Assembly: GCA_963921275.4 (NCBI GenBank) | Contig: OZ001293.3 | Span: forward strand, 5,568,001-5,632,000 | Direction of reading: 5' to 3' | From: an uncultured Hormoscilla sp. | GTDB lineage: Bacteria > Cyanobacteriota > Cyanobacteriia > Cyanobacteriales > Desertifilaceae | DNA: 64,000 nt | In this document: piece after piece, positions 2,451-64,000 of the stretch | Layout of the letters: each line of letters opens with the position of its first letter | Position numbering within the stretch: position 1 is the first letter of the stretch | Notes under the pieces: generated by a model | The model's database searches: none | Seen by the model: the letters and a program-made list of their open reading frames with translations, nothing else | What the model was told of the DNA's origin: nothing | Translations under genes and position numbers: made by a program

Positions 2451-2965
2451 ATGGCCTGATAATCTCCGGACTTGCCGCCGGTTTTGCTCAAAAGACGAAT
2501 CGATTCAATCTGGATCGACTTTTCCAAGGCTTTGGCCATATCATAGAGAGTCAGGGCGGCCACGGAGACTGCGGTCAGGGCTTCCATTTCCACACCGGTT
2601 TCGGCTTGAGTTTTGACTGTAGCTCGAATCTGATAACCAGGCAACTGGGGGTCTGGGGTCAGCTGCACCTCAATTTTCTGCAGGGGCAGGGGGTGACACA
2701 AGGGAATCAACTGTGCTGTTTGCTTTGCTGCCATAATTCCTGCTATCCTAGCAGTGGCTAACAGATCCCCCTTGGGGGCGTTACCCGATTGTATTGCAGC
2801 CAAGGTTTCTGGCAACATCCGCACCTGACTGGCAGCTACGGCTTGTCGGACAGTCTGGGGCTTGGCGGAAACATCCACCATCTGGGCTTGTCCCTGCTGG
2901 TCCAAATGGCTGAAAAATTTTACCGTTCCGGAAAAATCGGAAAAATTTGTTGGTCTAGTTGTCAT
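2447..2965 (-). CDS. moaC: Cyclic pyranopterin monophosphate synthase MoaC
   Basis: [58 protein letters not shown]; 15-bp insert at 2922-2936. Confidence 0.97.
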
Positions 2966-3037
2966 TCTGTGAAAATGTGTTAGTATAGTTTAAGTGGAGG
3001 TTAGGGAACACCCAAAACTCCCATTTCATTTGGACAA

Positions 3038-3111
3038 GGGCTTGTAGCTCAGTGGACTAGAGCACGTGGCTACGGACCACGGTGTCGGGGGTTCGAATCC
3101 CTCCTAGCCCG
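3038..3111 (+). tRNA. tRNA-Arg(ACG)
   Basis: GGGCTTG acceptor stem pairing with CTAGCCC, D arm TAGCTCAGTGGACTAGAGC, anticodon arm CGTGG-CTACGGA-CCACG, T loop GGTTCGAATCC; CCA not encoded. Confidence 0.96.
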
Positions 3112-3124
3112 TTTCTCCGGCGAT

Positions 3125-3336
3125 CGTTCGTAGTAAACGCAAAGCGCGTTTGCCGTTCGTAGTAAACGCAAAGCGCGTTTGCCAGGTAATTACTCACAAT
3201 TGACGAAAACCGGTAGTCAAGGAAAGCTAACAGCCGGTGGATGGGTTTCGTGGGTCAACCCAACCTACAGATGAAAACCGGTAGTCAGGGAAAGCTAACA
3301 GCCGATGATTGGATTTTGTGGGCCGACCCAACCTAC
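3125..3336. repeat. Two local tandem duplications downstream of the tRNA (29 bp x2; ~64 bp x2)
   Basis: CGTTCGTAGTAAACGCAAAGCGCGTTTGC at 3125 and 3154; GAAAACCGGTAGTCA..CCCAACCTAC at 3205 and 3273. Confidence 0.85.
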
Positions 3337-3457
3337 GGTTGACGCAACAACTGACGTTCTAGCTCTTGGCGCTGTTTGGTCAGGTCTCGTATTTGATCGG
3401 CGCTGATTCGGTCAAAGACCTCGGTAAAAGTTTGTATTACTTGCTCACTAATATCAT

Positions 3458-3809
3458 CCAGCCAAAAACAACCAGCACTAACTACCATTTCCCTTTTCGG
3501 CCAGCGTATAAGCCTTATTCCGCTGGTCAATAGTGACGAGGTTTACATAGGTTCGCTTATTCTAACTATCAGCATCTTTCCTATCGCGCAGCGTGGCGCA
3601 GCCATGCGGCATCACTGGCTTAAACTGCCAGCTATCCTACATTTAAGTCCTTGCTTCGCACCACAGCGATATAACTCCGTAGCACTAAGGACCGGTGTTA
3701 CCCCCGCGCCTAGGGAAGGGGAATTTAACCCCCATGATAACCAGAGTTTCTGGCAAATGAAACCAGACAGACTTTCACCGTTACCGATTTACGCCTGAAC
3801 GAATCGCAC
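3458..3809 (-). mobile_element. 5' fragment (part of domain I) of a third group II intron subfamily (C)
   Basis: Starts GTGCGATTCGTTC; aligns with subfamilies A/B (CATGGGGGTTAAATTCCC, ACCGGTCCT, AAATGTAGGATA, GGAAATGGTAG) up to the EBS1 stem-loop, then homology stops. Confidence 0.85.
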
Positions 3810-4219
3810 TTTTATTTCTATTCCATATTCACTGTTCTGATAATCTTCCCATACAACCAACTCTTCTGGCACCGGCGATGTTCTTTCCGGAGTCGGATAA
3901 TTCTTTGGTTTCCTGTCAGTGACCGGTTGGGATTTAGGGAGGATACTGACAATTATAGCAAACACAGCCGCCAGCAAAAAGCAGGTTATTGCTATTGCTA
4001 ATAAAGTTTTCACCCATGCCGATGATGCCGAGGATCCAGAACTCCAGGCGCTATGATGACGGTTGGGGACTGCGACCCGTCTATTGCCTCTCGCGGCAAA
4101 CCGCATATAATACAGTCTGGTTCCGAGTTTTCCTGTGGTTGGTGGGGACCGGAGCAATAAGGGTATTGTTTTCCGTCTTTTGGTTTCCCATCGCAGATCC
4201 ATTTACCTTGTGGAATCAA
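3810..4219 (-). pseudogene. Membrane-anchored protein (Cys-rich N-terminus, TM, start of a PsbP-like domain); frameshifted and intron-interrupted
   Basis: WICDG..H..EN..PDCIICGLPRE in one frame; TM helix and WEDYQNSEYGIEIK in another, ending exactly at GTGCG of intron C. Confidence 0.55.
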
Positions 4220-4303
4220 CTTCCCTCACCTCCCTAGTGTCAGTTATCAGTTATCAGTGCTTTTGCATCTCCTGGTGGGCGGTGCCCACCCTACTTCCTC
4301 TGG

Positions 4304-6715
4304 CTATTCTCTGCACTCACCCCAGAGGGTCAAGGTACAGGGCGGTAAATCCTGGTTGCTTGGTGGCCCTGGCGATCGCCTCCTCTCGATCTCCCCATTT
4401 ATGCTATCTAGTTCCCGATTGTATTGCACAACCTTATTGGATTTTGTGCGATTCGTTCTAGCCTAACGTGGTCAAACACGGAACGCTAGCCCGGTTTCAT
4501 TAGCCGGGAACTCTGACCGCATGGGGGTTAAATTCCCCTCCCCCCAGGTACGGGGGTGACACCGGTCCTCGGTGCTACGAAGCGACATCATCGTGGTGCT
4601 AAGCGAGGACTCAAATGTAGGATAACTGGCAGCCTAAGCCGGTGACGCCGCTAGGAAAGATATCCAAGGTTAGAGCAGGCAAACATGTGCAAGCCTCGTT
4701 ATAAGGAACCAGCGAAATAAGGCTATATGCGCTGGCCTAAAAAGGAAATGGTAGCTAGTATTAGTTTTAGACTCTGGCTAATATAGTACTCAAATAGCTC
4801 CCGGGGTATAGTGTGGACCTAAAGGTATCGCGAAATGTTGTTAGGGAACGAAGTAACCTCTCGTGTGCTGTTCATCAGGACAAGTTAGATGTTAAGCGCA
4901 AGCCACGGGGGCAGGGATGGCCCAAGAAGCGAATGCCCGGGGTAATTCCTGGGATAACATCTACAGTAATGTAGATGATGCTGGGTAGCCAGCGCTGACG
5001 TGGGTCGGTGATACTAGGAAGCTGCTGGAATGAGTAATCCTAAAAAGCCACGGAACTAATCCGAAACGCAAGTGGAGGATAAGGTATGGATAACTGGTAA
5101 AACTGACTTGAAAATGGTGATACTAACGGTTATCAGAACAACCACTCGCTAAACCAGGAAAGGGAAGAAAAGACAGGCGGCAAGGGCTAACAGAAGTAAT
5201 TCCTATTAAGTCTACCTATGAAAAGGGCCTAGTACCTAGTAGCCGGATGCGGTGAAAATCGCAAGTCCGGTTCCGAAAGGGAGGGTCGGGAAGCGATTCC
5301 CGGCTCGACCCCATCCACCTTATATGCTAGGCTATCTTTAGGAATCTGCCTCAGTTTCTCGATCGCCTCAATCCATTTAGCTCTAGCATCGGAAAGTTGG
5401 GGTATATTTTTAGCAGCAGCGGCGATCGCTTCTGCGTTATCCAAGAGTTGCTGTGCATACTTCTCCTTATCCAGATGCCCATTCATTATTCTCCGCTGAC
5501 TCTGGTAATTTGTTAATAAACTCTGGGCCTCTGAGTAGAGTCGGGAACTTCCTGGAATCTTTTGCAACTGGCCGATCGCCTCTTCCATGCGCTTGCGTTC
5601 CCGATATAATTCTGGTAATGTTTGGGCATTCTCAAATAGAGTCCTAGCTGACTCAGCTTGGTCTTTTGCCTTATCGATCGCCTGGCGATCTTTCTCATCC
5701 TCTTCAACCTTTACTGATGGCGAATTATTGCCCAACTGTTCTATCATTGCGGGCACAAATGCCATGGCCGAGACGATCGCAATGCCCAGCCCGATCGCAG
5801 CAGCAATTGTATTAATCCCTACTTTAGAGGTTGTCTGCCCAGGGGTAGGAGGAGGGTTGGTTGATGAACTGGGCGACAAGACGACCGTAGTTCCGGTATT
5901 ATTTTGCAAGGATCTGACAGCTTGCAGAGCCTCGGTTGCTGACTGATAGCGCTGACGGCGATCGCGACGCACCATGCGATCTAATACCTTGGCTACATTA
6001 TCGGAGACCTGCGCTTTCTGCCGCCACATAATTTCATCGATATCCCGGTCTCTTGGCAGCCGTTCGGGCTCCAGACCGGTCAAGGCTTGGAGCCCGAACG
6101 TGCCCACGGCATAGACATCGCTGCTTAAATGGGGGTAACCCTCAATTTGTTCGCTGGGCATATAGCCCGGAGTACCGATCATCACGGTGGGAGACCCCCG
6201 ACCATTAATCCCCCCAGCTGTAACTTGCTTTACCGCCCCAAAATCAATCAACACCAACCTCCGATCTTCATGGCGGCGGATGATATTACTCGGCTTAATG
6301 TCCCGATGCACTACATTGTGACGGTGGACAAATTCTAGCACGGCTAATATTTCCGATACTAGCCCGAGCGCTTGTTCGAATGGCAGCCTGCGATCGGGAA
6401 GCAATTCATCACTCAAAGGATGTCCGTCAATAAATTCTTGAACAATAGAGAACTCGCCCTTTTTCTCAAAATAAGCCAGTAGCCGAGGAATTTGCAAATG
6501 TTCTCCCAGCTTTTCTAAAGTTTCCGCCTCTGTTGTAAACAAGCGTCGGGCCGTCTGCATAATTTCAGGATTGGGGTCAGCAAGGTGTAGTTGCTTAACC
6601 ACGCATTTGGGGTGACCGGGGCGCTTAGTATCTTCTGCTAGATAGGTTTGCCCAAAGCTACCTGAACCCAGGGGGGCCGTGACTCTGTAACGTCCATCTA
6701 AAATTTGTCCGATTT
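4304..6715 (-). CDS. Ser/Thr protein kinase (Hanks type) with TM and helical C-terminus, interrupted near its 3' end by an antisense intron
   Basis: IGQILDGRY..LGSGSFGQTY (upstream of the ORF-track start), VVKQL, HRDIKPSN, LIDFG, GTPGYMP, SDVYAVG; frame resumes at 4445 (KSNKVVQYNREL...) after removing 4446-5316; no ATG found at the expected start. Confidence 0.85.
4446..5316 (+). mobile_element. ORF-less group II intron, subfamily A copy 2
   Basis: GTGCG start, D5/D6 at 5240-5316, EBS2 ATAAGG (4701) and EBS1 AGACTC (4769) complementary to the 5' flank CCTTAT-tg-GATTTT. Confidence 0.93.
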
Positions 6716-7088
6716 TTCCGGAACGGTTTATGGCAGGTTTCCTTGACCAACTGTCGGGCGGGCATCGCCTACCTCATTATACATCACCTGGCAACTATGG
6801 GGTCTCGCTGTAAAAAATATTCAGCCTGTGCCGGTGGTCAATCACCGTCACCCTTAAGATTTCTCGGTTAGGGAGTGAAGAGTAGTAGTATTGCGTAAGG
6901 TGCGTAGCGATCCGCACACGCACGGGTGCGATCGTTTTCCGTCTCGTAACGAAAAAAATCAGTCACCCTTCGGTTCGCACAAAAAGAGAGACACCGACCC
7001 GTAATGCACCGGGTGGGGGCTAAAAAACCCGGCTTTTGTCAGAAACCGGGTTTGCAAGATAGTACAATTGTGAAAAAAGAGGGAGAGT

Positions 7089-7751
7089 TTATCCTTGAAT
7101 AACTGCACTGACAGTCTGACTCCAAGGACCGGGTTCGCCTCGCTTATTCACCCAGCGCAACATATAATAAGCAATTTGACCGGCATGTTCTTCCCCATAG
7201 GAGGCAATGTAAGGGGTCGCTGTATCTATTCTCAAAAACTTTAACTCACTGGGTCCAGTGGGCGCAGATCCTCCTACCTTCACCCAAATTTCACAACCCA
7301 TCACCCCAGATGGTTTCGCCCGACGGTTGGGGGTTTGCTCATCCACAAAACGAATCGAGTGCCGCAGGCGCGAGTTCGCATCCACCCATCCCATAGGTCG
7401 AGTTGTCGGCACAGCAGTTCGGGTGCGAACTGTCTGGGGCACCCGTATTTTCAAGGCTGCCTTGTGGCCATCGGTTACCTTGGGGTTGGCCTGCAATTGC
7501 TTGGTGAGACTGCGCAGAAGTGACTCATAATCCTTGCGAGAATCAATTTTATCCTGGCGGACACTCTCAGCAGCAGCTTGCTTGGCAATATGATCGCTAT
7601 AGGTATTTTGCCACTTACCTTGCTTGTTGGTCAGCATGGTCAAGTTATCTTGGGTCAATCCTAACTCGCTCAGATTAGCAGTCAGGTAGTTGACGAAGTT
7701 GGCTTCCCAGCTTTGGAACTCTGCGTCAGAGCGTGGGATAAAGTCCGTCAT
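7089..7751 (-). CDS. Hypothetical protein: helical N-terminus plus fibronectin-III-like C-terminal domain
   Basis: 220-aa ORF, MTDFIPRSDAEF..W..NF; C-terminal GCEIW..YYMLRWVNKRGEPGPWS resembles FN3-type termini. Confidence 0.7.
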   Translation of the reverse strand: MTDFIPRSDAEFQSWEANFVNYLTANLSELGLTQDNLTMLTNKQGKWQNTYSDHIAKQAAAESVRQDKIDSRKDYESLLRSLTKQLQANPKVTDGHKAALKIRVPQTVRTRTAVPTTRPMGWVDANSRLRHSIRFVDEQTPNRRAKPSGVMGCEIWVKVGGSAPTGPSELKFLRIDTATPYIASYGEEHAGQIAYYMLRWVNKRGEPGPWSQTVSAVIQG

Positions 7752-7843
7752 GATTATCTTATTTTATGTGTTACTGTATCGAATTCTATCAGCACGACAT
7801 CCAATGCGCAATCAAAATTGCTTAAGAGAAAAAAAGTCGAGTA

Positions 7844-8178
7844 ATCCGAACCAGTTGTGCTACTTGCCGAACTCCGGTCGCTACTCAAGGCGCGACAGTC
7901 ACTACTTTCTGAACTCCGGTCGTTACTCAACCCGCACAGTCCACTATCCAACCCGCACAGTCCACTATCCAACCCGCACAGTCCACTATCCAACCCGCAC
8001 AGTCCACTACCAAACCCGCGACAGTCACTATCCAACCCGCGACAGTCACTATCCAACCCGCACAGTCCACTATCCAACCCGCGACAGTCACTATCCAACC
8101 CGCACAGTCCACTATCCAACCCGCACTCGTTCCACTCCCCCAGCACTCGTTCCACTCCCCCAGCACTCGTTCCACTAT
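7844..8178. repeat. 21-bp tandem array with two alternating unit variants, degenerate at both ends
   Basis: CAACCCGCACAGTCCACTATC / CAACCCGCGACAGTCACTATC units at 7928, 7949, 7970, 7991, 8012, 8033, 8054, 8075, 8096. Confidence 0.95.
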
Positions 8179-8334
8179 TATGGCCTGACATCCGTTAACT
8201 GATTTGATTTGTGCAGCATATAGCTGGCGATAACAAACCGGGTTTCTCTGAGAAACCCGGTTTGAAGATATTGCAAATTGTTACCGTTCCGGAAAAATCG
8301 GACGATGGGGCGATCGCACTGGCCACCCCACATC

Positions 8335-8508
8335 CAATACCTCTCGGTTAAGCAGGGGGGCGGGAGATTGCTAGTGCTCCTGCGTCGCACCGCTGCGCTT
8401 TTACGAAGTGCGCGTAGCGCTACGGGGGTCTCTTCAATTGCCCATAAGTTAATCCCTACGTAACCCCCCCTCGCAATGACAACTTATATCCTTAACCGAG
8501 AAGTATTG
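8335..8508. mobile_element. MITE with 18-bp TIRs and a 10-bp target duplication (Nezha-like geometry)
   Basis: CAATACCTCTCGGTTAAG ... CTTAACCGAGAAGTATTG (17/18 match), flanked by ACCCCACATC at 8325-8334 and 8509-8518. Confidence 0.88.
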
Positions 8509-8536
8509 ACCCCACATCAACCCAACTGGCGATCGC

Positions 8537-10569: not shown

Positions 10570-10915
10570 CGATGTCTACCGTTCCGGAAAAATCGGGACG
10601 CTAGCTGCTGCGCTAGCGCGAAAACCCCGAAGACATCGATCGCCGGTAGAATCAACTCGGTTTCTGGCCGTCACGCCTGGAGTGGGGAGTCTCGCAGATG
10701 CGATCCTATCGGGACAAGAGCGAAAAAATAGGCGTGGCTTGGGCATCAAACCCTTTCACAGAGCCATTTTTAGGTCGCGATGTCTGATTTTTCCGGAACG
10801 GTGGGGTTTTTGCCATGCATCCCTCAGACATCGTAGGGTCTCCTTGGACGCAGGCGAGCGGGTTTCAGCCATTTAATAGCCTTCTTCGATGTCTACCGTT
10901 CCGGAAAAATCGGGA
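10570..10915. repeat. Cluster of palindromic CGATGTCT...AGACATCG elements, each carrying the 15-bp insert
   Basis: Copies at 10570-10638, 10778-10833 and a partial one from 10887; related copies at 12581-12660 and 46152-46232. Confidence 0.8.
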
Positions 10916-11211: not shown

Positions 11212-16762
<5,551 letters not shown>

Positions 16763-17457
16763 AATAACCTCGCTTCCCGCCACCCCGCCTCACCCTAAAG
16801 GGTGGGGCTACATGAACAAAGCCCGCCTGCGCGGGCTACCGTTCCGGAAAAATCAGGATCTGTGGTAGACTCGTAGCGTGGGCAGTGGATCGTGTCTTAC
16901 CGCTACCGGTGATAGCTAGATCGTTGACCGGTGAAACCGGGTTTCTTTATTTCTTTGATAACACACACGAGAAACTCGGTTTCTGGGGATACTTGACCTA
17001 TGTAGTAGAATGGTTTGGTAGGATTGTAAGTATCCAATGAGGGATGAGCGTCGCTCTTTTTTCATAGGATTCTGTGGTAGACTCGTAGGGTAAGCACTCT
17101 CTGGCGCTTTATCGCTACCGGTGGCAGCTAGTAGGATTATGTGGGCAGCTAGTAGGATTCTGTGGTAGGATATTAAGCGTCTAATAAGGGGCGATCCTTG
17201 TTAAACCGCAAAGTGACAGGTTAATCAGTGTGATATTTAGTGTTTGTTGGTGTAGTTGACAATGGTCTCAGCGCCAGTTTTCCAGAGAATTTCCTTGATG
17301 TTGCTGAAAGTGGTGGCAATTAGTGGAATTATGTGGTAGAATAAGTATCTAACAAAGATGGTTATCCAGAACCAAAAGGACGTTGGACTGGTAGAAAAGG
17401 GCAAAAAGCACAGTGTGATAAAGCTGTTGAAATAGTAAGAAAAATTTTAGAATCCAA

Positions 17458-17997: not shown

Positions 17998-18035
17998 CGT
18001 AATTGCCCGATCGCCCACGAATAGGAGTACAAGTC

Positions 18036-26517: not shown

Positions 26518-27352
<835 letters not shown>

Positions 27353-29908: not shown

Positions 29909-30654
29909 TTAATCTATGGCATAAACATCTTGGCCCTTGCCGATCGCATACCGGAGAGAATAAGATAAGTTTTTGCTGCACATGGTGGTAAAAATTAGTA
30001 GATTGACAAAGGAGAGCGCAGTAGCAAGGGCGAACATACTGCGATAATCCCATGAAGAAGCAACTAAGCCAAATGCTGGACCTGCGATCGCCATGCCAAA
30101 ATCCAACCCCCCCAGGCACAAACTAAACACGCGCCCCCGTTCGTTAGGGTAGCAGCGGTCTGCGCTCGTGGCAGACATTAGGGGCATAATCATACCAAAC
30201 CCTAACCCAAGTAAAGTGTATGGCATTACCGACGACAATCCACAAAGTTAGCATCCCCGTACAGCAGCAGAGAAATGCTAATAAGTAGCCCTGTGCCACA
30301 CCAAACGCTCAAGGGACCGATTGCTTTTCGACTGCATAAGCTAGCGATCGAACTGGCGGTATAGAACCAGCTGGAATTGAGAGCGACATTTAGATCTTTA
30401 ATAAATAAAGGAACGAAGGTTTCCCGGGCTGCAAAAACCACTCCTACTAAGAACAGCACTAGAGTAGGAATGCCGATGCTCTGACTGTTTAACCTACTCC
30501 AGAATTTGTCCTCTTTCGGCTGCGATGTCCGATTTTTCCGGAACGGTACCTGTTCTGTTTGAGGCACTGATGGTTCTCTGACTTGTAAGCCACAGACTAG
30601 ACTCAATAATCCTAACCCGGAGGTGAAGAGAAATAAAGTCGAATAACCGAATGA
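29909..30654 (-). pseudogene. MFS transporter paralog, 3' half only, frameshifted
   Basis: Clearly homologous to 25037-25790; split into ORFs 30226-30606 and 29909-30238. Confidence 0.85.
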
Positions 30655-46076: not shown

Positions 46077-46241
46077 GGAAAAAGCCGGGTTTAGCCGTCC
46101 GCGTAGCGTGCGCGCAGCGCATAGTAAAGGAAGTTGCTTTTCAAGAAGGTCCGATGCCTGATTTTTCCGGAACGGTGGGATGCAACGCTGCCAACCCCAT
46201 GCGCGCAGCGCACGCTGCGCGCGCAGGCATCGTGATAAACT

Positions 46242-52196: not shown

Positions 52197-52510
52197 TTTA
52201 AGGTTGCTGAATTTTGAATGGCTTAGGAACGAGTCGCTCCCTTATATATGTATACTTCAGATGGGGTTCGGGATATTTCGGATAATTTCAAAAATTATTT
52301 GCTGTGTTATCGGTTAGAGAAAAAATAGATGAACCGAGGAGAGGGAAACGATGCCTACCGTTCCGGAAAAATCGGGAGTATGGCCAAAACCTTGTCGCAG
52401 AGAGAAAATGCGCATTTTTTCGATGACCGGTGGTAAAAAATCAATGATTTACTACCGGTGATAGACGGCCATGTAGGAGGAACGGCCAAAAATAAATTGA
52501 CTCTTCGGCG

Positions 52511-52790
52511 TTGGGTAGTGAAGGGTCGGGGTTGGGTAGTGAAGGGTCGGGGTTGGGTAGTGAAGGGTCGGGGTTGGGTAGTGAAGGGTCGGGGTTGGGT
52601 AGTGAAGGGTCGGGGTTGGGTAGTGAAGGGTCGGGGTTGGGTAGTGAAGGGTCGGGGTTGGGTAGTCTAGGGTCGGCGTTAGATCTCCACCCCTGCGCGT
52701 TGAGTGGCGACCCGTGCCCGTTGTCGCTCCACCTGGGTTGGGTTAAGCTTGCACTCCTGCGCGTTAAGCTTGCACCTAGGCGCGTTGTAT
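52511..52790 (+). repeat. 21-bp G-rich tandem array (7 perfect units followed by ~6 degenerate units)
   Basis: TTGGGTAGTGAAGGGTCGGGG from 52511 to 52657; the period continues at 52658, 52679, 52700, 52721, 52743, 52764. Confidence 0.95.
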
Positions 52791-53005: not shown

Positions 53006-56000
53006 ATGTTTACTCAAGTCAAGTCCCGCATTCGTCACGTCGCCCCCGATCGCCTCGGGGAGCGCAAGTTGGTTAAGGTGGTATATGTGGTGCTAGAGTC
53101 CCAGTACCAAAGTGCTCTGTCGGCAGCAGTTAACGACCTTAACGAGTATAACCCCAATCTGGCGGTGAATCTGAGCGGTTATCTGATCGAGGAACTCCGC
53201 GACCCGGAAAATTACGCAGCTTTTCAAGCAGATGTCGCGAATGCCAATATATTCATTGCTTCCCTGATTTTCATCGAAGATTTAGCTCAAAAGGTGGTGG
53301 CGGCGGTAGAACCCCATCGGGATAACCTGGATGTGGCGATCGTCTTCCCCTCTATGCCGGAGGTGATGCGCCTGAATAAAATGGGCAGTTTCTCCATGGA
53401 AAACCTGGGGCAAAGTAAAGGTGCGATCGCCCAGTTCATGCGCAAGCAGAAGGAAAAGTCGGGTTCGTCGTTCCAGGACTCGATGCTGAAGGTGGTGCAA
53501 ACCCTACCGAAAATCCTCAAGTACATGCCTATGGACAGGGCCCAGGATGCCCGCAACTTCATGCTTTCCTTCCAATACTGGTTGGGGGGTTCGGCGGAGA
53601 ACCTGGAAAACTTCCTGCTGATGCTGGCGAATAACTACGTTCTCAAAGAACAACAGCAGTTGACCTTCGCCCCGCCAGTGGTCTATCCGGATATGGGAGT
53701 TTGGCATCCCCTGGCCCCCCAGATGTTTGAGGATGTGAAGGACTATCTCACTTGGCACGGCAACCGGGATGATATCTCCGATTTTTCCGGAACAGTGGAT
53801 CTGAAAGACCCTCTGGCCCCCTGCGTGGGTTTGGTACTGCAACGGACTCACTTGGTCACGGGGGATGATGCCCATTATGTGGCTATGGTACAGGAATTGG
53901 AAGCCATGGGAGCCCGGGTAATTCCGGTATTTGCCGGGGGTTTGGATTTTTCTAAGCCCGTGAATGCCTATTTCTGGGATAAGTTGGGTAAGAGTGCAGT
54001 CCCCTTGGTGGATGCGGTGGTCTCTCTGACTGGGTTCGCTTTGGTGGGAGGCCCGGCCCGACAAGACCATCCCAAGGCCATCGAGTCTCTCAAGCGCCTG
54101 AACCGCCCTTACATGGTCGCTTTGCCCCTGGTGTTCCAAACTACGGAAGAATGGGAAGATAGCGATTTGGGACTGCATCCCATTCAAGTGGCCCTGCAAA
54201 TTGCTATTCCCGAACTGGATGGGGCGATCGAACCGATTATCATGTCGGGACGGGATAGCTATACTGGGAAGGCGATCGCCCTTCAGGACCGGATCGAAGC
54301 AGTGGCGAAAAGGGCGGTGAAGTGGGCGACCCTGCGCCGGAAACCGAAGTTAGAGAAACGCATTGCCATCACGGTGTTCAGCTTCCCGCCGGATAAGGGG
54401 AACGTGGGCACTGCTGCGTACCTGGACGTATTTGGCAGCATCTATGAAGCGATGAAGGCACTCCAGGGTAATGGTTACGATATCCCAGAATTGCCGGAGT
54501 CCCCTGAGGCCCTGATGCAGGAAGTCATTCACGACGCCCAGGCCCAGTATGCGACTCCAGAACTGAATATTGCTTACCGGATGTCGGTGGAAGAGTACGA
54601 GAAACTGACGCCCTACTCGGAACGGTTGCAGGAAAACTGGGGTCCGCCTCCGGGACATCTGAACAGCGATGGCCAGAACTTGCTGATCTACGGCAAGCAT
54701 TTCGGCAATGTGTTTATTGGCGTCCAACCGACTTTTGGTTATGAAGGGGACCCGATGCGTTTGCTGTTCTCCCGTTCTGCCAGTCCCCATCACGGGTTTG
54801 CTGCTTATTACAGCTATTTGGAATATCTCTGGCAAGCGGATGCGGTCTTGCATTTCGGCACTCACGGTTCTCTGGAGTTCATGCCCGGCAAGCAGATGGG
54901 CATGTCGGGGGATTGTTACCCGGATAATCTGATTGGTAGCATTCCCAATCTCTATTACTATGCGGCTAATAATCCTTCTGAGGCAACTATTGCCAAGCGC
55001 CGCAGTTATGCCGAAACCATTTCCTATTTAACCCCCCCGGCGGAAAATGCGGGGTTGTACAAGGGGTTGCAGGAATTGTCGGAGTTGATCGGATCCTATC
55101 AAACTCTCAAGGATACTGGACGGGCGCAGCCCCTCGTCAATACGATAATGGATAAATGTAGGTTGGTGAATCTGGAGAATGATATCGCTTTGCCCTCAAA
55201 GGATGCCAAGGACATGAGTCCCGAAGAACGGGATACCTTGGTGGGTAAGGTCTATGGCAAGTTGATGGAGATTGAGTCCCGTCTGTTACCTTGCGGGTTG
55301 CACGTGATTGGCAAACCCCCGACTGCCCAAGAGGCGATCGCGACCTTGGTGAACATTGCTAGTTTAGACCGAGAGGAAGAAGGAATCAAGAGTTTGCCTC
55401 GGATTATTGCGGAGTCGATCGGGCGGGACCTGGATGAAATCTATCAAAACAATGACAAGGGCATTTTAGAGGATGTGGAGTTGCTGCAAAACATTACGGA
55501 AGCAACTCGCGCCGCTGTGGCGGCCTTGGTGAAGGAACGGACGGACGCGGAGAGACGGATCTCGAAGGTTTCCCAACTCAACTTCTTGAATATGGGCAAG
55601 AAGACTCCCTGGATCGCAGCATTAAATGATGCAGGTTACTCTAAGGTTGACCCCGAACCAATCAAACCTCTGTTTAACTATCTGGAATTCTGCCTGCAAC
55701 AGGTTTGTGCCGATTTAGAACTGGGGTCTTTGTTGCGGGCCTTGGAAGGGGAATATATCTTGCCCGGTCCCGGGGGCGACCCCATTCGCAACCCGGATGT
55801 TTTGCCTACGGGTAAGAATATCCACGCCCTGGACCCCCAATCTATCCCCACTTTAGCAGCAGTTAAGTCCGCTAAGATTGTGGTCGATCGCCTGTTAGGG
55901 CGGCAGCGGCAGGATGGCGGGGCCTATCCAGAGACGATCGCGGTAGTCTTGTGGGGGACGGACAACATCAAGACCTACGGAGAGTCCCTCGCCCAAGTGA

Positions 56001-57019
56001 TGTGGATGGTAGGGGTGAAACCGGTACCGGATGCTTTAGGGCGGGTGAACAAACTGGAACTGATCCCCTTAGAAGAGTTAGGGCGTCCGCGCATTGATGT
56101 AGTGATCAACTGTTCTGGGGTCTTCCGGGACCTATTCATCAATCAGATGAACCTGCTAGACAAAGCAGTGAAGATGGCAGCGGAGGCGGATGAACCCATA
56201 GAGATGAATTTTGTCCGCAAACATGCCTTGCAGCAAGCAGAAGAAATGGGCATTCACCTGCGCCAGGCCGCGACGCGAGTGTTCTCCAATGCATCGGGTT
56301 CCTATGCGGCGAACGTGAACTTAGCGGTAGAGAACAGTACCTGGGAAGAGGAGTCGGAGTTGCAGGAAATGTATCTGAAACGCAAATCCTTTGCCTTCGA
56401 CTCGGATAATCCCGGTATGATAGCAGAAGATCGGCCCGAAGACGGTCCGAAAAATCGGCGGATCTTCGAGTCAGCGCTGAAGACAGCGGATGTTACCTTC
56501 CAAAATTTGGATTCTTCGGAGATCTCCCTGACGGATGTATCCCATTACTTCGATAGCGACCCGACAAAGACGATCGCGAGTTTGCGGGGGGATGGCAAGC
56601 AACCGGCATCATACATAGCGGATACTACCACAGCGAACGCGCAAGTGCGGACATTATCAGAAACGGTGCGTTTAGATGCGCGGACGAAGTTGTTAAATCC
56701 GAAATGGTACGAAGGGATGATGTCACACGGATATGAAGGAGTGCGGGAACTGTCGAAGCGTTTGGTGAATACAATGGGATGGAGTGCGACAGCAGGTGCA
56801 GTAGATAACTGGGTGTACGAGGACGTGAATAGTACCTTCATTGAAGATGAAGGGATGCGTCAGCGTTTGATGAATATGAATCCCCATTCCTTCCGCAAGA
56901 TGGTCACGACCTTGTTGGAGGTGAACGGACGGGGTTATTGGGAGACATCGGAGAGTAATTTGGACCGGTTGCGGGAGTTGTATCAGGAGGTGGAAGATCG
57001 GATTGAAGGTGTAGAGTAG
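53006..57019 (+). CDS. chlH: Magnesium chelatase subunit H
   Basis: [48 protein letters not shown]; 15-bp insert at 53782-53796. Confidence 0.98.
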
Positions 57020-57196
57020 TATACCGTATGGCAGGCATCTTGCCTGCTAGTTTCTTGTCCTAACTATAATATACAATATCAAGGCGATCGCCTGGCATCT
57101 GAATGCAAGAATCAAGAAACCAGATTTTTACAGAAAACCTGGTTTCTTGATCCTAATTGCTAGTGCAGCGCGACGGAAATATGCCAACAGTTACCC

Positions 57197-57577
57197 CTAT
57201 GGCGCTTCATCTAGGGATGCTGGGCGATCTTGGTTGAGTTGGTCGAGCAGGTGCAGGATGCGATCGCCCCGTTCCAGGGAGCGGTCTTCCAGGAAAACCA
57301 CTTCTGGGGTACGACGCAGACGAATGCGATCGCCCAGTTGAGAGCGAACAAAGGGGGTAGCGGACTGCAAACCTGCCATCGTTTCCTTTTTAGCCTCCTC
57401 CGTCCCGTAGATACTGACAAATATTTTGGCATGTTGGAGGTCGCCAGAGACATCCACATCTGTGATACTAACCATCCCGGCGCCCACACGATCGTCTTTG
57501 ATACCGTGGAGCAACATCTGGCTGACTTCGCACTTGATCAGGGAGGACACGCGAGCCATACGACGACTTGTAGCCAT
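57197..57577 (-). CDS. rbfA: Ribosome-binding factor A
   Basis: [43 protein letters not shown]. Confidence 0.97.
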
Positions 57578-57628
57578 AGGACTTCTCTACCATGCTAAGG
57601 TAGGGGCTAATCTTGTACGATTCTCAGT

Positions 57629-57832
57629 TTACACTGGGGTTAGCCCCAGCATGGCACGGAGGGTTAAAATCACAAAGATCAAGCTACTCACCACCAGACC
57701 GATCAGGGCGATCGCCGTTACTGGCCTCTTCAGCAGGGGTTTGAGCTGCTGAAACAAGAAAAAGAATATCCCCAGAGTAAAGGTGATAAAGTAGCGGAAG
57801 TAGCTAGATACCTTATTCAAGAAGTCTTCCAT
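57629..57832 (-). CDS. ycf33: DUF751 family protein Ycf33
   Basis: MEDF..VS.Y.RYFIT..LG..PLLKRPVTA..TLRAMLG, directly upstream of rbfA. Confidence 0.82.
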   Translation of the reverse strand: MEDFLNKVSSYFRYFITFTLGIFFFLFQQLKPLLKRPVTAIALIGLVVSSLIFVILTLRAMLGLTPV

Positions 57833-57939
57833 TGTCAGTCCCCAGTCAATTCAACTGTATCGCTTGTTTAGTTTAATCATAAACCACCATCCAGTATAGT
57901 CCAATTCCGAGTCGTAGTACATATTCCATGTCGAGGTAA

Positions 57940-58773
57940 ATGTCAAGTCCAGATTTAGAAAAAGTCCCACCCCGTCCATTCCTGAAATGGGCCGGTGGCA
58001 AAAGTAGGCTGATTCGGCAATATGAAGATTATTTCCCCGAATTCAAAAATTATTACGAGCCATTTTTAGGTGGAGGTGCAGTGTTTTTTTATCTCCAACC
58101 CCAGTCTGCTGTTTTGACAGATATAAATCCGGAGTTGATTAATGCCTATTGCTGTGTTAGGGATCGAGTAGAGGAATTGATTTCACGACTGCAAGAACAT
58201 CAGACTAACCATAGTAATGATTACTATTATGAAATGCGATCGCTAACCCCCAAGACAGAACTTGAAAGGGCTGCACGTTTTATTTATCTGAATAGAACCT
58301 GTTTTAATGGTCTTTACCGAGAAAACTCTCAAGGGAAATTTAATGTCCCGATCGGCAGATACAAAAATCCGCAAATCTGTAATCCGGAATTACTCCGTTC
58401 CGCATCAGCTACCCTGGAAAATGTTAAGATTTCGGAAAAATCCTTTGAACATGTCTTAGAATCTGCTAATAGCAGCGAGGATTTCGTCTATTTTGACCCG
58501 CCATATTATCCAGTTAGTTCTACCAGTAATTTCACAGCCTACAGTCGCGATTTCTTTAGTAAGAATGACCAAACTGAACTCAGAGAAATTTTTGTAGAAC
58601 TAGCTGGACGCGGTGTAAAAGTGATGCTGTCTAATTCTGATTGTGATTTTATTCGAGACTTATACAGTCAGTTCAAAATTCACAAAATATCAGCAGCACG
58701 CTTTATTAACTCTAATGGTAAAAAGCGGGGAAATGTTTCAGAGATATTAGTCGCCTCTAGAGATTGTTGTTAG
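57940..58773 (+). CDS. Dam-like DNA adenine methyltransferase (D12 class)
   Basis: FLKWAGGK, EPFLGGG, FNGLYREN..GKFNVP, VYFDPPY, VMLSNS. Confidence 0.93.
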   Translation: MSSPDLEKVPPRPFLKWAGGKSRLIRQYEDYFPEFKNYYEPFLGGGAVFFYLQPQSAVLTDINPELINAYCCVRDRVEELISRLQEHQTNHSNDYYYEMRSLTPKTELERAARFIYLNRTCFNGLYRENSQGKFNVPIGRYKNPQICNPELLRSASATLENVKISEKSFEHVLESANSSEDFVYFDPPYYPVSSTSNFTAYSRDFFSKNDQTELREIFVELAGRGVKVMLSNSDCDFIRDLYSQFKIHKISAARFINSNGKKRGNVSEILVASRDCC

Positions 58774-59278
58774 CCAAGGCAACAAAATCTATTAAATTGT
58801 GTACTGCCTTGAGCTTTTGATTAACGCCTACTTATGCTTTTAACCAATCAATAGCTCCTGCTTTCATACCCTCACCATCAAGCAACACAACTGTTGGTGC
58901 CGGATAGCGATTCTGGATATTCAAGTTGAGGTAGGGCAATTTTTCATCAACTGAACCACTGGTTTGCTGCGACTGACATTGAATTATTAGACCACGATGA
59001 AATAAGGGAGAACCAATAACGTAAAAGTCTACATAGATATCAGTCCCGTAAATTACATCTCCAACGTGAACCTTTGTTGCATAGCGCTTTGGCAAGTTAG
59101 TGGAACTGAGAAGGGATTCTAATTTCTGCTTTCTTGGCAAATCATGTCCGACTTGAACATAACCATGTCCTTGTAATATTTTTTCTACAGTCTCCTCGAA
59201 CCTCTTGCCAGAAGTAACTGCTTTACCGCCCTGAGTCATTTTTTCCTCAAATTTAATAAAAACTACGTCACTGCTCAT
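58757..59278 (-). pseudogene. PD-(D/E)XK nuclease, probably truncated by a nonsense codon
   Basis: VDFYV..QQTSGSVDEKLPY; TAA at 58832-58834 followed by 24 open codons (VGVNQKL..ANNNL) to 58757. Confidence 0.6.
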
Positions 59279-59983
59279 TCTATCATACTTTAGTGAAATA
59301 CGCGGTTATCGGTGCCGAGGCCCGGTAATCCGAGGCCATCGCTACAAAAGAGACCTCCGGTGCAGTCCCCAAACCAGAGAACTGGCACGGGAGCATCTCA
59401 AGAATGTCATCAAGCCCGCGCAGGCGGGATTTGTTGGGTCTCCTCTACTTATAGTGATAAGTCAAACGTATATGTACGCATAATCAAGGGTTTCAGCCTT
59501 TTTTATCCGCCCAATTTGTATCCGGCGATACATTTACCACCATAAACGCAGGAGAGCCGGTTTGTTTGTCTAGCCCCATTCTTTAGGGTTCCGGTGTGGT
59601 AGCTAAGCAAAAGTGATATGCACCCACTGGCACCGGTGGAGTGGTGAAAGAAAAGTCAGAGGACAGCAGCAGCAAAAATGTTGTCTAATTAAGAAACCAG
59701 GTTTCTGGGTTCGGAATGAATAGAGTTGGCGGCAAAATTGAGATGCACTCAGCAACTTTCCACCTACAGCTCAATAGTTTACTGTTATCGCTTGTAAATT
59801 GTACCTGATGTCCAGTCTTTTTTTATTCCCTTGGCTTTAAATACCACGTCTACTCTAAATAAATTTGTATTACTTGTAGCTAAAATTGGATTACTTAAAA
59901 CAAGGGCAATTTATTCACTGGTCTCTTCATTTGGTTCAATTCGTTTTCGCTCATTGAATATTAGTTGACTGAAGGCTCTGTTT

Positions 59984-61069
59984 GTGGGGTATTTTGTATC
60001 TACTTTAATAGGTTCTGTGCCAATAGTGTATATCCGATCGCGTGAAGAAATTGCTGAGGCAATTTCTCCAGCATTGATAGAGCAGTATTCCATATCTACT
60101 TTGGTCCGCCCAATGTTTTTGACTCGGACCTCAATAATTGCTATAGAGAAGCTGTTAAGAGTAGTCATCTCTTTAAGAGTTTGGGTGATGATCAGCCAGT
60201 TTACCAGATATATGTCACAAAAACCAGAAACAAATGAGATTGACGATCGGCGGGATGCCAAAGAAGCTCAACCAGTCCTGAAAATACAGGCGATCGCTCT
60301 TCTACGCTTTTTGATTAGGCTACTAGAAGGAACTGTGGAAACACTGGAGGCCAAACTGCCACCAGACGATCTACCAAGAAGAACGCCTACGAGCAGTGGT
60401 TGGTGGAATGTAGTGTTAAGGAACATTCGCGCTGTTCTGCCAAAATTACTCAACCAGGTCTTATCTGATTTTGCTTTGAGCCTAGGGATTTCAGTAGCTA
60501 TTTTAATCCTACCCTTGTGGATAACTATTTTGATATCTCCAACTGAGGTAGTAGAGTCTCCGACTGTCGAAGCAGAAAAGCCCGCAACTGAGGTGGTAGA
60601 ATCTCCGACTGTCGAAGCAGAAGAACCCGCAACTGAGGTCGTAGAATCTCCGACTATCGAAGCAGAAGAACCCGCAACTGAGGTCGTAGAATCTCCTGAA
60701 ATTCCTAGTGGTCCAGTGCCAGTGGAGATAGTACCAGCACCAGTATTAATGCCAGAAGAAAACCTGGTTGCGATAATTCAAAATCAAGTCGCAGACCAGA
60801 TCCCAGAAGCAGAATATGCAGAGGGGTTAATTCAGTCTTTGAAAGCCGACTTTAACAATAATATTTTGGTGGTTAAAGTCAGCTATAATTGGTATTATAT
60901 CAGTCCAGAAAACCAGAACGAGTTTGCCCAGTCAATGCGGCAACTATCTCAAGAACTTGACTTCTATAAACTGGAAATCACTGATACTGAAGACACCCTA
61001 TTAGCCCGTTCTCCAGTGGTGGGACCAAAGATGGTGATTTTCCAGCGACGGTTAGTCCTCAGTCACTAA
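59984..61069 (+). CDS. Membrane-anchored hypothetical protein with 15-aa acidic repeats (true start probably 60212)
   Basis: TM helix, PATEVVESPTVEAEE repeats (45-bp unit, ~60540-60695), C-terminal LLARSPVVG. Confidence 0.7.
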   Translation: MGYFVSTLIGSVPIVYIRSREEIAEAISPALIEQYSISTLVRPMFLTRTSIIAIEKLLRVVISLRVWVMISQFTRYMSQKPETNEIDDRRDAKEAQPVLKIQAIALLRFLIRLLEGTVETLEAKLPPDDLPRRTPTSSGWWNVVLRNIRAVLPKLLNQVLSDFALSLGISVAILILPLWITILISPTEVVESPTVEAEKPATEVVESPTVEAEEPATEVVESPTIEAEEPATEVVESPEIPSGPVPVEIVPAPVLMPEENLVAIIQNQVADQIPEAEYAEGLIQSLKADFNNNILVVKVSYNWYYISPENQNEFAQSMRQLSQELDFYKLEITDTEDTLLARSPVVGPKMVIFQRRLVLSH

Positions 61070-61635
61070 CAACTGTTGATAAGCTTTAACTTTCTGGTCA
61101 ATGCCAGTGATATCGGTGCCAAGAACTACAGCAGCAGCTCCCAAATCTAGGGCTGTTTTCGCCATCGCTGGTGAGGCAATGCCCCCTTCACAGATAATTG
61201 GGATATCTAAATGGCTGACGAGTTGGCTGAGAAGTTCAAACCCTGGAGGAGAAAGATGTTGGGTTTGCTTGGTATAGCCGTAGAGAGTTGTGGCGATCGC
61301 ATCAGCACCAGCTCGCGCAGCATTGGTTCCTGCTGCTAAACTATCTACATCTGCCAGGACTGGCTTACTTAATCGATCGTGAATGTGCTTTACGAGCAAG
61401 TCTAGGGTTTCGCCGTTTGGTCGTTCTCTTTGAGTGGCATCAATAGCGATGATATCAGCACCAGCTTGAGCAATAGCAGCAGCGTGATGAAACTGGGGAA
61501 TGCGGCAATTACTACTGGATCGTGCAGGGGCGAGGAAGCGGGGGTGTCTGGAGCGTACCGCGTCCTTCAGGACAAGAGTACGCGGAAGACGCCGTAGGCC
61601 TGACAGGAAACTATGAGTCCTTTGATGTTCAGCAT
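61052..61635 (-). pseudogene. nanE: N-acetylmannosamine-6-phosphate 2-epimerase, disrupted
   Basis: GLIVSCQA + 54-bp insertion with TGA (61543-61596) + SPLHDP.VIAA, internal deletion, then GADIIAIDAT, TTLYGYT, ICEGGI. Confidence 0.85.
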
Positions 61636-61675
61636 GTTTTTCTAGCGCTAACGGGCACTTCCTATAAATTAATAA

Positions 61676-64000
61676 TCAACAATCAACCAGCAAACTGTTA
61701 AGTTTTTCTAATAACTGCTCTGGTTGGACGGGTTTAGTTAAATAATTATCAGTCGAGGAGTCGGGATAATTAGATGGGTCTATAGAGTCGTCCCAGAGAA
61801 TCAGAATTTTGATCTGCTCAGTTGTCGGTTCCGATCGCAGTTGGCGGATGACTTCCCTGCCATCTATCCCTGGTAGCTGCCCGGCGACGATCGCGACTAG
61901 GGGTTGTAAAATCTCGATTTGCTTGACTGCTGTAGTGCCTTCAACTAGCCAGACGACCTGATAGCCAGCGGCGGTGAGCAGGTCGCAGATCGTCCAAGCG
62001 GTTTCCTCATTGTTCTCAATTAATACCACACGTCCGCCAGGAGTGGCTGCATAAGTCGGTCCTGCTGGTGCTGGGGCCGGGGCTAATGGCTGGGCGGGCA
62101 ACCGCACGGTGAAAACTGAACCGATATCTACAGTTGATTCTACCGAGATCGCGCCGCCGTGGAGTTCTACCAACTGTTTGGTTAAGGCTAAACCCAGACC
62201 CGCCCCTTGGTAGTTGCGATCGTATGAGGTATCCAATTGCTGAAATTTCTCAAACAGGAGCGCGATCTGCTCTTCAGGAATGCCGATACCAGTGTCTTCT
62301 ACCTGAAACACAGCCGTATCGCCTACCGTTCCGGAAAAATCGGACGAAACTCGTAGAGTCACCCGTCCCCCAGAGGGAGTAAATTTGATCGCATTGCTCA
62401 ACAGATTCCAGAGAATCCGTTGGATGCGGCGTTGGTCCCCTAGGAAGCGATCGCTCTCGGGCTGAATCTGTATATCTAGAACCAGTTTCACTCCCTGTTC
62501 TGCTGCTATTTGCTGCATGCTTTCCCGACAATTATAAGCCAGTTTACTCAGGGAAAACTCTTTCACATTCAATACTGCTTTCCCCGCTTCCACCTGAGAC
62601 AATTCCAGAATGTCGTTAATCAAGTCTAGCAAATGCTTGCCGCTATCGTGGATGGTTTGCAAATAAGAACGCTGTTTTTCTATAGTCAGGACTCCCTTGG
62701 CTTTTTCCAGATCTAAAGACAACAAACGTAACAGAGTAGCAGACATACCAATAACGCAAGTAAGGGGCGTGCGTAACTCGTGACTCATGGCAGCGAGAAA
62801 CTCACTTTTAGTGCGGTTGGCAGATTCGGCACCCAGTAAGGCGTCGCGGAGTTCCGCGGTCCGATCTCTCACCCGCTGCTCCAAGTTTTGTTTTTGCAAC
62901 TGTAGCTGAGCATACAACTGGGCTTGGCAAATGGCGATCGCCAGATGTTCGGCAATTTTACCGAGAAAAGTTTTTTCACTTTCAGACCATTGGCGCGGTT
63001 GGAAACATTGCTGGGCGATCAGCAATCCCCAGAGTTGGTCTTGAACCACAATTGGCACTACTAATTTGGCTCGGACTTGCATCCGGCGCAATAATTCTAA
63101 AAAGCAGGGGGATGATGCATAGGCTATTTCAATATCTTCCACCCCATGAATAAAGCCATTACGATATTTATCCTCAATATTGGCTGTATCAACAAAGCAG
63201 TCTTTTGCTTCCCGCAAATGCAGTGCTGAAACTAGAGAAGCTGTTGCCTTAGCTTCGTATGTTACACAACCTTTATAAGCTGTAAAGGAGGAATTTATAA
63301 TAATTTTTGAATTAGGGTCAAACTGATAAATCAACAATCTGTCTACTTGCAAGAAATGTCGTACCTGCTCCACAGCGGTTGACAAAATAACCGGCAATTC
63401 CAGACTCTGACGAATCTGGGTAGCTACCTGATTTATCAGCCGTTCCTGTTCAAGCTGTTGCCGCAAAGCTGCGGCCATTGGTTCGCAAACATAGGGATAA
63501 TTTTCTTCTCCTCCCGACTCATTATCGTCAGTGGCAATAATTTTCATTAGCGCCAGGGTAAACTCGCTCTGGCGCTTCGGATCATTAGGTTTGAGAATGG
63601 CACCCGCTTGCGCTAAGATACTTTTAACTTCCGGCTTGCTTGTCAGGCGATCGGCCAGTTGGTTGAGAAAAGAGGCGATCGCCTCTGGGTCGAAGCTGAG
63701 ATTCACAAACACTTGCTCATCGACTAGGTTGCGGTTTTCATCTGGGGATAATTCCCCCAATAGCAATACATTAAATTCCTCGGAAAGTAACACCGAGAAC
63801 CGTTCATTATGAGCATTTTTGAGATTTTCAACGGGATCAAGGATATCTTCTGTAAGCAGAAGATATCCTGGGTCACAGTTGGGGGCGGCTTGCTGCCGTA
63901 ATAGAGCGCTCAGCCGAGCAAAAGTTCTCATATTCAAGATGAGAAGTCCTGTTGTCAGATATACGCTGCGCGCACGCTGCGCGGACGGCATTTTTTTCAT
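61676..64000 (-). CDS. cikA: Circadian input kinase A (GAF - His kinase - pseudo-receiver)
   Basis: IRQSLEL..DRLLIYQF GAF, FLAAMSHELRTPLTCVIGMSATLLR, NLLSNAIKFT, DTGIGI, GLGLAL, receiver lacking the phospho-Asp. Confidence 0.88.
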   Translation of the reverse strand: MKKMPSAQRARSVYLTTGLLILNMRTFARLSALLRQQAAPNCDPGYLLLTEDILDPVENLKNAHNERFSVLLSEEFNVLLLGELSPDENRNLVDEQVFVNLSFDPEAIASFLNQLADRLTSKPEVKSILAQAGAILKPNDPKRQSEFTLALMKIIATDDNESGGEENYPYVCEPMAAALRQQLEQERLINQVATQIRQSLELPVILSTAVEQVRHFLQVDRLLIYQFDPNSKIIINSSFTAYKGCVTYEAKATASLVSALHLREAKDCFVDTANIEDKYRNGFIHGVEDIEIAYASSPCFLELLRRMQVRAKLVVPIVVQDQLWGLLIAQQCFQPRQWSESEKTFLGKIAEHLAIAICQAQLYAQLQLQKQNLEQRVRDRTAELRDALLGAESANRTKSEFLAAMSHELRTPLTCVIGMSATLLRLLSLDLEKAKGVLTIEKQRSYLQTIHDSGKHLLDLINDILELSQVEAGKAVLNVKEFSLSKLAYNCRESMQQIAAEQGVKLVLDIQIQPESDRFLGDQRRIQRILWNLLSNAIKFTPSGGRVTLRVSSDFSGTVGDTAVFQVEDTGIGIPEEQIALLFEKFQQLDTSYDRNYQGAGLGLALTKQLVELHGGAISVESTVDIGSVFTVRLPAQPLAPAPAPAGPTYAATPGGRVVLIENNEETAWTICDLLTAAGYQVVWLVEGTTAVKQIEILQPLVAIVAGQLPGIDGREVIRQLRSEPTTEQIKILILWDDSIDPSNYPDSSTDNYLTKPVQPEQLLEKLNSLLVDC

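Follow-up and report, generated by a model that had tools for sequence, protein, structure and literature searches.

The window analysed here is a 64,000-nt stretch of the genome of an uncultured Hormoscilla sp. (contig OZ001293.3, positions 5,568,001 to 5,632,000 of the forward strand), in which moaC, gltB, chlH and the gene of a CikA-like kinase lie among short repeats. Dispersed through these genes and repeats is a 15-nt element, hereafter E1, of which the window contains 13 copies, 12 of them exact and one, at 53782, with one mismatch. The shuffled window contained a mean of 0.24 copies and a maximum of 2, and the density in the window is approximately six times the genome average (13 copies versus the ∼2 expected from the 238 genomic copies with at most one mismatch). 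The left flank is CCGA at ten of the sites and CTGA at three. A preliminary description of this DNA, made from the letters alone, had listed 13 coordinates and strands, all of which were reproduced in our recount. It had also reported that the symmetry of host palindromes returns once exactly 15 nt are taken out, which we found at 10570, 10778, 12581 and 46152, and its peptide readings of the inserts in ChlH (against DISE-----DLKDP) and CikA (SSDFSGTVGD) were confirmed, as was the insert in MoaC. The proposed gain of five residues per protein holds for ChlH, CikA and MoaC, but not for GltB, which gained 81 nt rather than 15; the E1 copy in gltB sits inside a 66-nt host hairpin.

The genome of the window (G000, 7.03 Mb) was compared with four congeneric Hormoscilla genomes (G001–G004). 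G000 carries 180 exact copies of E1, all on the main contig, together with 58 one-mismatch and 36 two-mismatch copies. The exact copies have A at position -1 in 180/180 cases and are never followed by C at +1. Their left tetramer is CCGA in 135 cases and CTGA in 19, so the earlier statement that one of these two always precedes the element is true of all 13 copies in the window, but of only 154 of the 180 exact copies genome-wide. The four congeneric genomes have 26, 146, 150 and 132 exact copies, and none was found in the 36 other relatives examined. When 91 copies from loci of the relatives were taken, 68 matched G000, as clean 15-nt gaps (28), shared copies (19), partial matches (10) or other configurations (11 of the 58 aligned across the site, several of which combine a clean gap with another indel close by). 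Across 78 filled/empty pairs, flank mismatch is 2.6–11.5% per position, with -3 alone at 15%, mostly C>T, and the background mismatch between the genomes is 6.3% (1.1 Mb alignment). Because filled sites differ from empty ones in their flanks at the background rate, insertion involves neither target duplication nor co-conversion. A set of 65 filled/empty pairs came from an ungapped search for exact 15-nt empties only, and so they describe the junction bases and not the rate of precision. Every one of the 203 loop-variant copies has exactly five T at its left end, never six or more, and the scans run revealed neither 5′-truncated copies nor target duplications.

E1 is thus a real, mobile, clean 15-nt insertion after CCGA or CTGA without duplication. 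The filled and empty orthologous sites bear out its earlier characterization as a recently active, non-autonomous, site-specific and frame-preserving insertion element with exact boundaries. Orthologs lack the added residues (chlH and moaC are empty in the four relatives, and the solved ChlH structure 4zhj has a gap), and E1 is present in five separate assemblies as well as in read contigs. Both the chlH copy and the cikA copy lie, without difference, inside the unbroken read contigs X1 and X2, from runs that are possibly the source sample, and in a read contig of the X17 relative the chlH copy is absent. At three sites the presence of E1 among the relatives is patchy; this is not proof of precise loss, since the chlH, gltB and cikA trees disagree and recombination would explain the pattern equally well. 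The copies are clustered, with 20.7% of gaps below 2 kb against 5.2% expected. Two minor contigs of G000, C3 with 17.6% GC and C2, which holds a tandem repeat of one open reading frame (ORF), carry neither HIP1 nor E1 and may therefore come from outside the cyanobacterium.

E1 is built of five T, a CCG-GAA-CGG hairpin with a 3-bp stem and a GNA loop, and a final T. The commonest variants differ only in the middle of the loop, which is A in 180 copies, C in 19, G in 3 and T in 1, and this variation fits a GNA triloop. Such triloops, typified by GCGNAGC/GCGNNAGC, are described as having much greater stability as DNA than as RNA and as resistant to exonucleases (PMC13037366). Among 317 matches to a relaxed pattern in G000 the stems are CCG/CGG in 200, CGC/GCG in 89 and CGG/CCG in 2, and 292 stems are complementary. 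E1 belongs to a set of 15–50-nt elements that use a common CGA^ target (the caret marks the insertion point). E2 is a second 15-mer with ∼90 copies, a CGC/GCG stem and a GCA or GTA loop; E4, with an 18-nt hairpin, and E7, with a 44-nt hairpin, are longer sisters that keep the order of T5, hairpin and T; and E5 and E6 are twin-hairpin sisters of 22–24 nt, located at the same CGA^ site. The TTCCGGAA palindrome, previously regarded as the core, is absent from sister elements that nevertheless retain the 3-bp stem and GNA loop, and since the hairpin module is kept across variants without it, the palindrome is incidental. The suggested pairing of the target CCG with the element CGG likewise does not generalize to E2 or to the twin-hairpin sisters. 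In one variant (G000 C1:6001840), common to a relative, a perfect CACCGGT...ACCGGTG hairpin arises from the element together with its flank. Several E4/E2 inserts lie within insertion sequence (IS) and intron copies (e.g. G000 C1 ∼830655–833655) and are spread passively with them. The positions of all copies and sisters in the window are listed in Table 1.

Table 1. E1 copies, sister elements and associated repeats in the window; filled and empty refer to the orthologous sites of the congeneric genomes
Feature	Position	Strand	Context
E1	2922..2936	-	In frame near the moaC N-terminus, +5 aa; site empty in G001–G004
E1	6713..6727	+	Upstream of Ser/Thr kinase ORF; G001 filled; G002–G004 empty (CCGC^TC)
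E1	8283..8297	-	Intergenic, adjoins AGAAACCCGGTTT-type repeat; G003 also filled
E1	10578..10592	-	Within host hairpin 10570-10638
E1	10788..10802	+	Within host hairpin 10778-10833
E1	10895..10909	-	Within truncated host hairpin starting at 10887
E1	12589..12603	-	Nested in 81-nt in-frame gltB insert (12582-12662), antisense (TVPEK); insert absent from G001–G004
E1	16838..16852	-	Foot of GTAG-type REP downstream of gltB; G003 empty (CTGA^AG)
E1	30533..30547	+	After CGATGTCCGA; site of a relative diverged but 15 nt shorter
E1	46162..46176	+	Within host hairpin 46152-46232
E1	52357..52371	-	In degenerate host hairpin upstream of large cadherin/LRR gene
E1 (one G>A change)	53782..53796	+	chlH, +5 aa; G001–G004 empty (CCGA^GG or CGGA^GG)
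E1	62325..62339	-	HATPase domain (Pfam) of CikA-like kinase, +5 aa; G002–G004 filled, G001 empty
E4 sister, 24 nt (T5 + 18-nt hairpin + A)	56431..56454	-	After CCGA, in frame in chlH, +8 aa; relatives empty
E5 sister, 22-nt twin GNA-hairpin	3584..3605	+	
E6 sister, 24-nt twin GNA-hairpin, one mismatch	46099..46122	+	
Host CGATG...CATCG hairpin repeats	10570..10833		Separate mobile family with other ends; internal CCGA/CTGA sites used by E1
ORF-less group II intron splitting gltB	12677..13511	+	Context, outside E1; absent from relatives

The target of E1 is YCCGA^R, with the insertion precisely 3′ of YCCGA; A is found at -1 in 100% of targets and G at -2 in 98%. HIP1 itself is avoided, as GCGA precedes only 4 of 173 copies and T occupies +1 in 7%. 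The base at -4 was counted at sites not followed by TC for E1, E2, E4, E5 and E6 and at all sites for E7. It is C in 152/164 targets of E1, 72/76 of E5, 12/12 of E4 and 10/11 of E7, and C is at its background level of 26% for E2 (10/39) and E6 (7/18; P = 2e-17 and 5e-7). In the elements' own 3′ ends, the corresponding base is C in E1, E4, E5 and E7 and G in E2 and E6. The split at -4 thus follows the element's own 3′ end, which means that the choice of target depends on the element. One recognition rule appears to set both the cut in the target and the right end of the element, but the six families may have a common history, so the match between target and own end across them is no more than suggestive. 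A universal rule of C at -4 for all of the micro-families was not upheld, given E2, E6 and the 45-nt host family. E5 and A-ended E2, the ends of which resemble the target, form head-to-tail runs; a tandem-junction search found no direct tandems of E1. At junctions followed by TC, the preceding base is A in 20/20 right ends of E4 and in 1/14 of E1. Across the sisters E2, E4, E5 and E6 an A/T switch is seen before TC, which is independent at the two ends in E6 and in several instances departs from the base of the empty site.

Approximately 100 of 185 unique-context E1 copies lie within rough ORF calls, and 85 lie outside. Sense copies are distributed over phases 0/1/2 as 5/2/45, compared with 4.8/20.2/27.1 expected from the available sites (P = 7e-7). 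In the depleted phase the final T of E1 opens a codon, and this T together with the next two target bases forms a stop at 60/185 sites. The element itself is stop-free, as had been claimed, but stops can arise at its junction, and the frame in which they do is the depleted one (2 copies observed, ∼20 expected), which indicates that selection filters the insertions even though the element carries no stop. In ChlH the five residues are extra relative to the solved structure, and eight more come from the E4 copy.

The relaxed pattern with 317 matches in G000 was matched no more than 9 times in any of 400 genomes drawn from the whole phylum, among which the 15-mer pattern occurs about as often as chance predicts. 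A stricter pattern, applied to 401 genomes of the order, gave 1–3 matches in 14 non-Hormoscilla genomes. In eight of these, from four families, a perfect hairpin with a GTA or GCA loop follows CCGA or CTGA, and two such non-Hormoscilla sites correspond to a 15-nt gap in a sister genome; the other six genomes have non-complementary stems and were set aside as chance. E1 has low-copy relatives in four other families, and only one genus carries it at high copy number. In Methanoregula (L031, L046, L056, L057, L064, L068, L071, L084) the matches are not insertions but parts of a long, degenerate, GATCGCGATC-rich repeat. Thirteen viral matches lack the CCGA flank and, by estimate, do not exceed chance; three of 20 metagenome matches repeat the g23 site, and most of the others look like chance.

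Several other repeats occur in the window. The CGATG...CATCG family that hosts E1 (42–45 nt; window 10570-10833, 12581-12660 and 46152-46232) inserts after C, ends two bases beyond its stem and itself enters genes in frame. A 54-nt hairpin family (61540-61597) has many copies in G000 and is polymorphic between relatives, as are families of 21–29-nt and 24-nt repeats with other targets. The group II intron in gltB is 835 nt long and missing from all four relatives; intron domain V also matched at 218-294, 5238-5314 and 27274-27351, and G000 has hundreds of group II intron copies. An Rfam CRISPR-DR28 match at 16815-16838 is a GTAG-type REP, neither E1 nor a CRISPR array, and REPs of this type flank Y1 genes elsewhere in G000. 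A 21-nt tandem repeat lies upstream of chlH (52520-52680).

The small dispersed repeats (SDRs) of Nostocaceae, SDR1-8, were reportedly described by Elhai et al. in 2008 as sharing a structure and measuring 21–27 nt, a range that includes the 22–24-nt sisters but not the 15-nt E1. SDR4/5/6 are said to show compensatory changes in their hairpins, which the complementary stems of the relaxed-pattern matches parallel in kind. The insertion of E1, precise, dispersed and with filled and empty orthologous sites, agrees with that of the SDR class. Our comparison uses SDR passages of four citing papers (PMC5861425, PMC4390886, PMC3116915, PMC2884548). In these passages, SDR5 is inserted between nucleotides 3 and 4 of HIP1 (PMC4390886) and is confined to Nostocaceae, outside of which the SDR passage of PMC5861425 reports no SDR-like repeat. 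A search of the genome of another cyanobacterium, G289, for this HIP1 geometry returned 646 matches (control 138), and ∼35 of 100 listed matches, inspected by eye, are 21-mers composed of two bases and two 3-bp GNA-loop stems, 11 of which are identical. By the published definition, these 21-mers are presumably SDR5. Like SDR5, E1 is very short, dispersed, precise and without duplication, and is found in genes and other repeats; the twin 3-bp GNA module of the G289 21-mers is that of E1, E5 and E6. The cuts are one base apart (CG^A versus CGA^), and the A-ended sisters fit either register. E1 differs from SDR5 in its single hairpin with a T5 tail, its target (CCGA^R and not HIP1), its occurrence outside Nostocaceae and the dependence of the target of its set on the element's own 3′ end. 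Since E1 shares the module and a near-identical target register with the SDR5-like 21-mers, it falls into a class that is known, though little understood, and forms the one-hairpin 15-nt end of the same design. E1 is shorter than SDRs and has another target, but it does not stand alone as a novelty.

E1 also shares features with REP/RAYT and IS200/IS605 systems, namely a hairpin in single-stranded DNA with a short 5′ tag, and insertion 3′ of a short motif without duplication (PMC8266576, PMC6006769, PMC3733652); for IS200/IS605 this motif is a conserved tetranucleotide, and insertion is directly 3′ of it (PMC6006769), as in E1. The right end of E1 also resembles its target. In contrast to REPs, E1 lacks a GT[AG]G tag (its foot is TTTT), has a 3-bp stem, occurs with half of its copies inside ORFs and does not flank a tnpA-REP gene; the GTAG REPs of G000 have their own RAYT genes. 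It differs from IS200/IS605 in having one 9-nt hairpin rather than two subterminal hairpins of 20–25 nt, and no autonomous parent was found: 16 left ends without a full element proved to be nested, mutated, longer or chance, and none was an IS. Unlike miniature inverted-repeat transposable elements, E1 has no terminal inverted repeats or target duplication, and unlike target-primed (SINE-like) retroelements, it has no variable A-tail, 5′ truncation or target duplication. Rickettsia palindromic elements are much longer than E1. These elements and CGTC-tagged repeats resemble it in being palindromic, located in frame in working genes and without a known dedicated transposase (PMC3733652), and differ in tag and target. 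Literal literature searches for the 15-mer, its complement and SDFSGTV returned 0 papers; topic searches, with the SDR consensus supplement of Elhai 2008 outside their scope, gave no description of E1, PMC3184786 contained no SDR passage, and Rfam has no family for E1.

How E1 moves can be approached from its exact ends, the lack of duplication, the specificity 5′ of the cut, the DNA-type hairpin and the element-dependent target, a combination that fits single-strand cutting and joining via a 5′-phosphotyrosine. We tentatively favor, at somewhat less than an even chance, a reading in which E1 would move as single-stranded DNA, cut out and rejoined in trans by an HUH enzyme of the Y1/TnpA-REP-like type. 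The GNA-loop strand would fold once single-stranded, and the enzyme would cut after the left CCGA of the donor and after the final T of E1. The product would be an oligonucleotide, either bound to the enzyme or closed into a 15-nt circle that has one GNA and one T6 loop; the excised 15-mer would then be joined to the 3′-OH of a new single-stranded CCGA, and replication would fix the insert. The length of 15 would let copies persist in proteins, and those creating junction stops would be purged. HUH enzymes are described as carrying out such joining under the direction of DNA guides (PMC6006769, PMC8266576), and TnpA-REP selects its cut sites through DNA guides that can be reset, e.g. to GA and GT (PMC8266576). 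A number of observations weigh against such an enzyme. Known Y1 substrates are described as larger, with 20–25-nt hairpins (PMC6006769) or stems of at least 5 bp (PMC8266576), and TnpA-REP cuts within a dinucleotide (C|T), whereas E1 joins after GA. In the classic extra-stable mini-hairpin a C-G pair closes the loop, but in E1 the closing pair is G-C, and since ViennaRNA gives the two strands equal folds, it is the GNA rule that indicates which of them would fold. These elements do not flank any of the 20 Y1 loci retrieved from the 29 matches in G001–G005; these loci carry their own REPs or inverted repeats, and in G000 the Y1 genes are degenerate or fragmentary, contain frameshifts or adjoin other repeats. 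Among 48 ORFs flanked on both sides, none looked transposase-like by eye, without a Pfam scan, and IS110 is represented in G000 by one broken gene. No cognate enzyme gene was found among Y1/HUH, reverse transcriptase (RT), IS110 or flanked ORFs, in searches that did not extend to Y2, relaxase, Cas1, serine recombinase or Uma2. In addition, the gene trees that bear on precise excision conflict, the A/T variation of the sisters before junctions followed by TC lies outside what this reading explains, and there is no orientation bias relative to transcription (51 sense, 49 antisense), neighbors or GC skew; the skew is flat and therefore uninformative about a lagging-strand bias.

The same chemistry could be provided without a dedicated transposase, if the host type IA topoisomerase I cut and joined the hairpin oligonucleotide, a possibility that we consider rather unlikely. 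G000 has one topA, at C1 ∼3713436–3716165, with an RR..DR...Y stretch that would correspond to R169/R173/Y177. This proposal would agree with the lack of a cognate transposase in the loci examined and with the clustering of copies, often in hairpin repeats able to expose single strands. Bacterial topoisomerase I requires C at -4 (PMC3467081, PMC9960139), and four of the six families (E1, E4, E5 and E7) have this base in both target and own 3′ end; E2 and E6 have it in neither, however, and in the 45-nt host family only 32–46% of flanks have it. The invariant A at -1 and near-invariant G at -2 are stricter than the -4 rule alone, the enzyme is universal whereas high copy number is limited to one genus, and for the intermolecular joining ascribed to topoisomerase I our search gave no supporting paper.

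An RNA intermediate is, in our view, another unlikely route: a group II intron RT would copy an E1 transcript into DNA at a CCGA end that is nicked or broken. For SDRs, Elhai et al. reportedly favored an RNA route. G000 has 93 RVT_1 matches, the opposite strand of E1 ends in five A, and the invariant A at -1 would suit the one-base-pair template switch of which group II intron RTs are capable. The evidence from E1 itself is difficult to reconcile with this route, as T5 is invariant, the scans run gave no 5′ truncation or target duplication, flank co-conversion and sense bias are lacking, and GNA triloops favor DNA. Of 62 RT loci examined among the 93, only two have E1 within 2.5 kb, none of them a non-intron outlier, and the lack of an Rfam family also argues against an RNA. 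Three RTs of G000 look unlike the intron type, at C1:4242457-4243011 (-), C1:1227407-1227886 (-) and C1:1776194-1776871 (-); one has YMDD, one is retron-like by eye and one is divergent.

Less probable still is repair-type patching or gene conversion, in which nuclease-resistant hairpin fragments would be captured at nicks made by a CGA-recognizing, HIP1-methylation-linked nuclease, with no transposition chemistry. The target resembles the HIP1 center, a cut directed to HIP1 has been suggested for SDR5 (PMC4390886), mini-hairpins resist exonucleases (PMC13037366), and the A/T variation is restricted to junctions followed by TC. However, E1 avoids HIP1 itself (see above), and capture of ends predicts ragged ends and random orientation, whereas the orientation of E1 to CCGA is fixed. 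An artefact of adapters or assembly, or a peptide motif under selection, can be dismissed as extremely improbable: nothing was found in favor of either, and the filled and empty orthologs refute them. E1 is present at different sites in five assemblies and in unbroken read contigs (possibly of the source sample), and its copies occur in several frames, on both strands and, in 85 of 185 cases, outside ORFs.

As far as our searches show, the movement of SDR-size repeats has been an open question since 2008. In E1 the 15-mer is defined and its target sharp, insertion events number in the hundreds and filled/empty pairs in the dozens, and the sisters differ predictably in one target base, so that candidate enzymes are directly testable by oligonucleotide cleavage and strand transfer. 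It is conceivable, though doubtful, that the GNA mini-hairpin micro-elements (E1, its sisters and SDR5) form a class of selfish DNA without its own transposase. They would be mobilized by an enzyme that acts on single strands in a housekeeping role, for example topoisomerase I, or by a strand-transferase not yet described, with the cut rule written in the 3′ ends of the elements. If this is true, E1 would be a minimal mobile DNA unit that brought a five-residue peptide into ∼100 ORFs through a scarless 15-base insertion reaction. Through E1 the SDR class reaches beyond Nostocaceae and below its reported size floor of 21 nt, and SDR5 is tied to a DNA-type GNA hairpin. It also exemplifies a route by which conserved enzymes such as ChlH, CikA, MoaC and GltB gain short loops.

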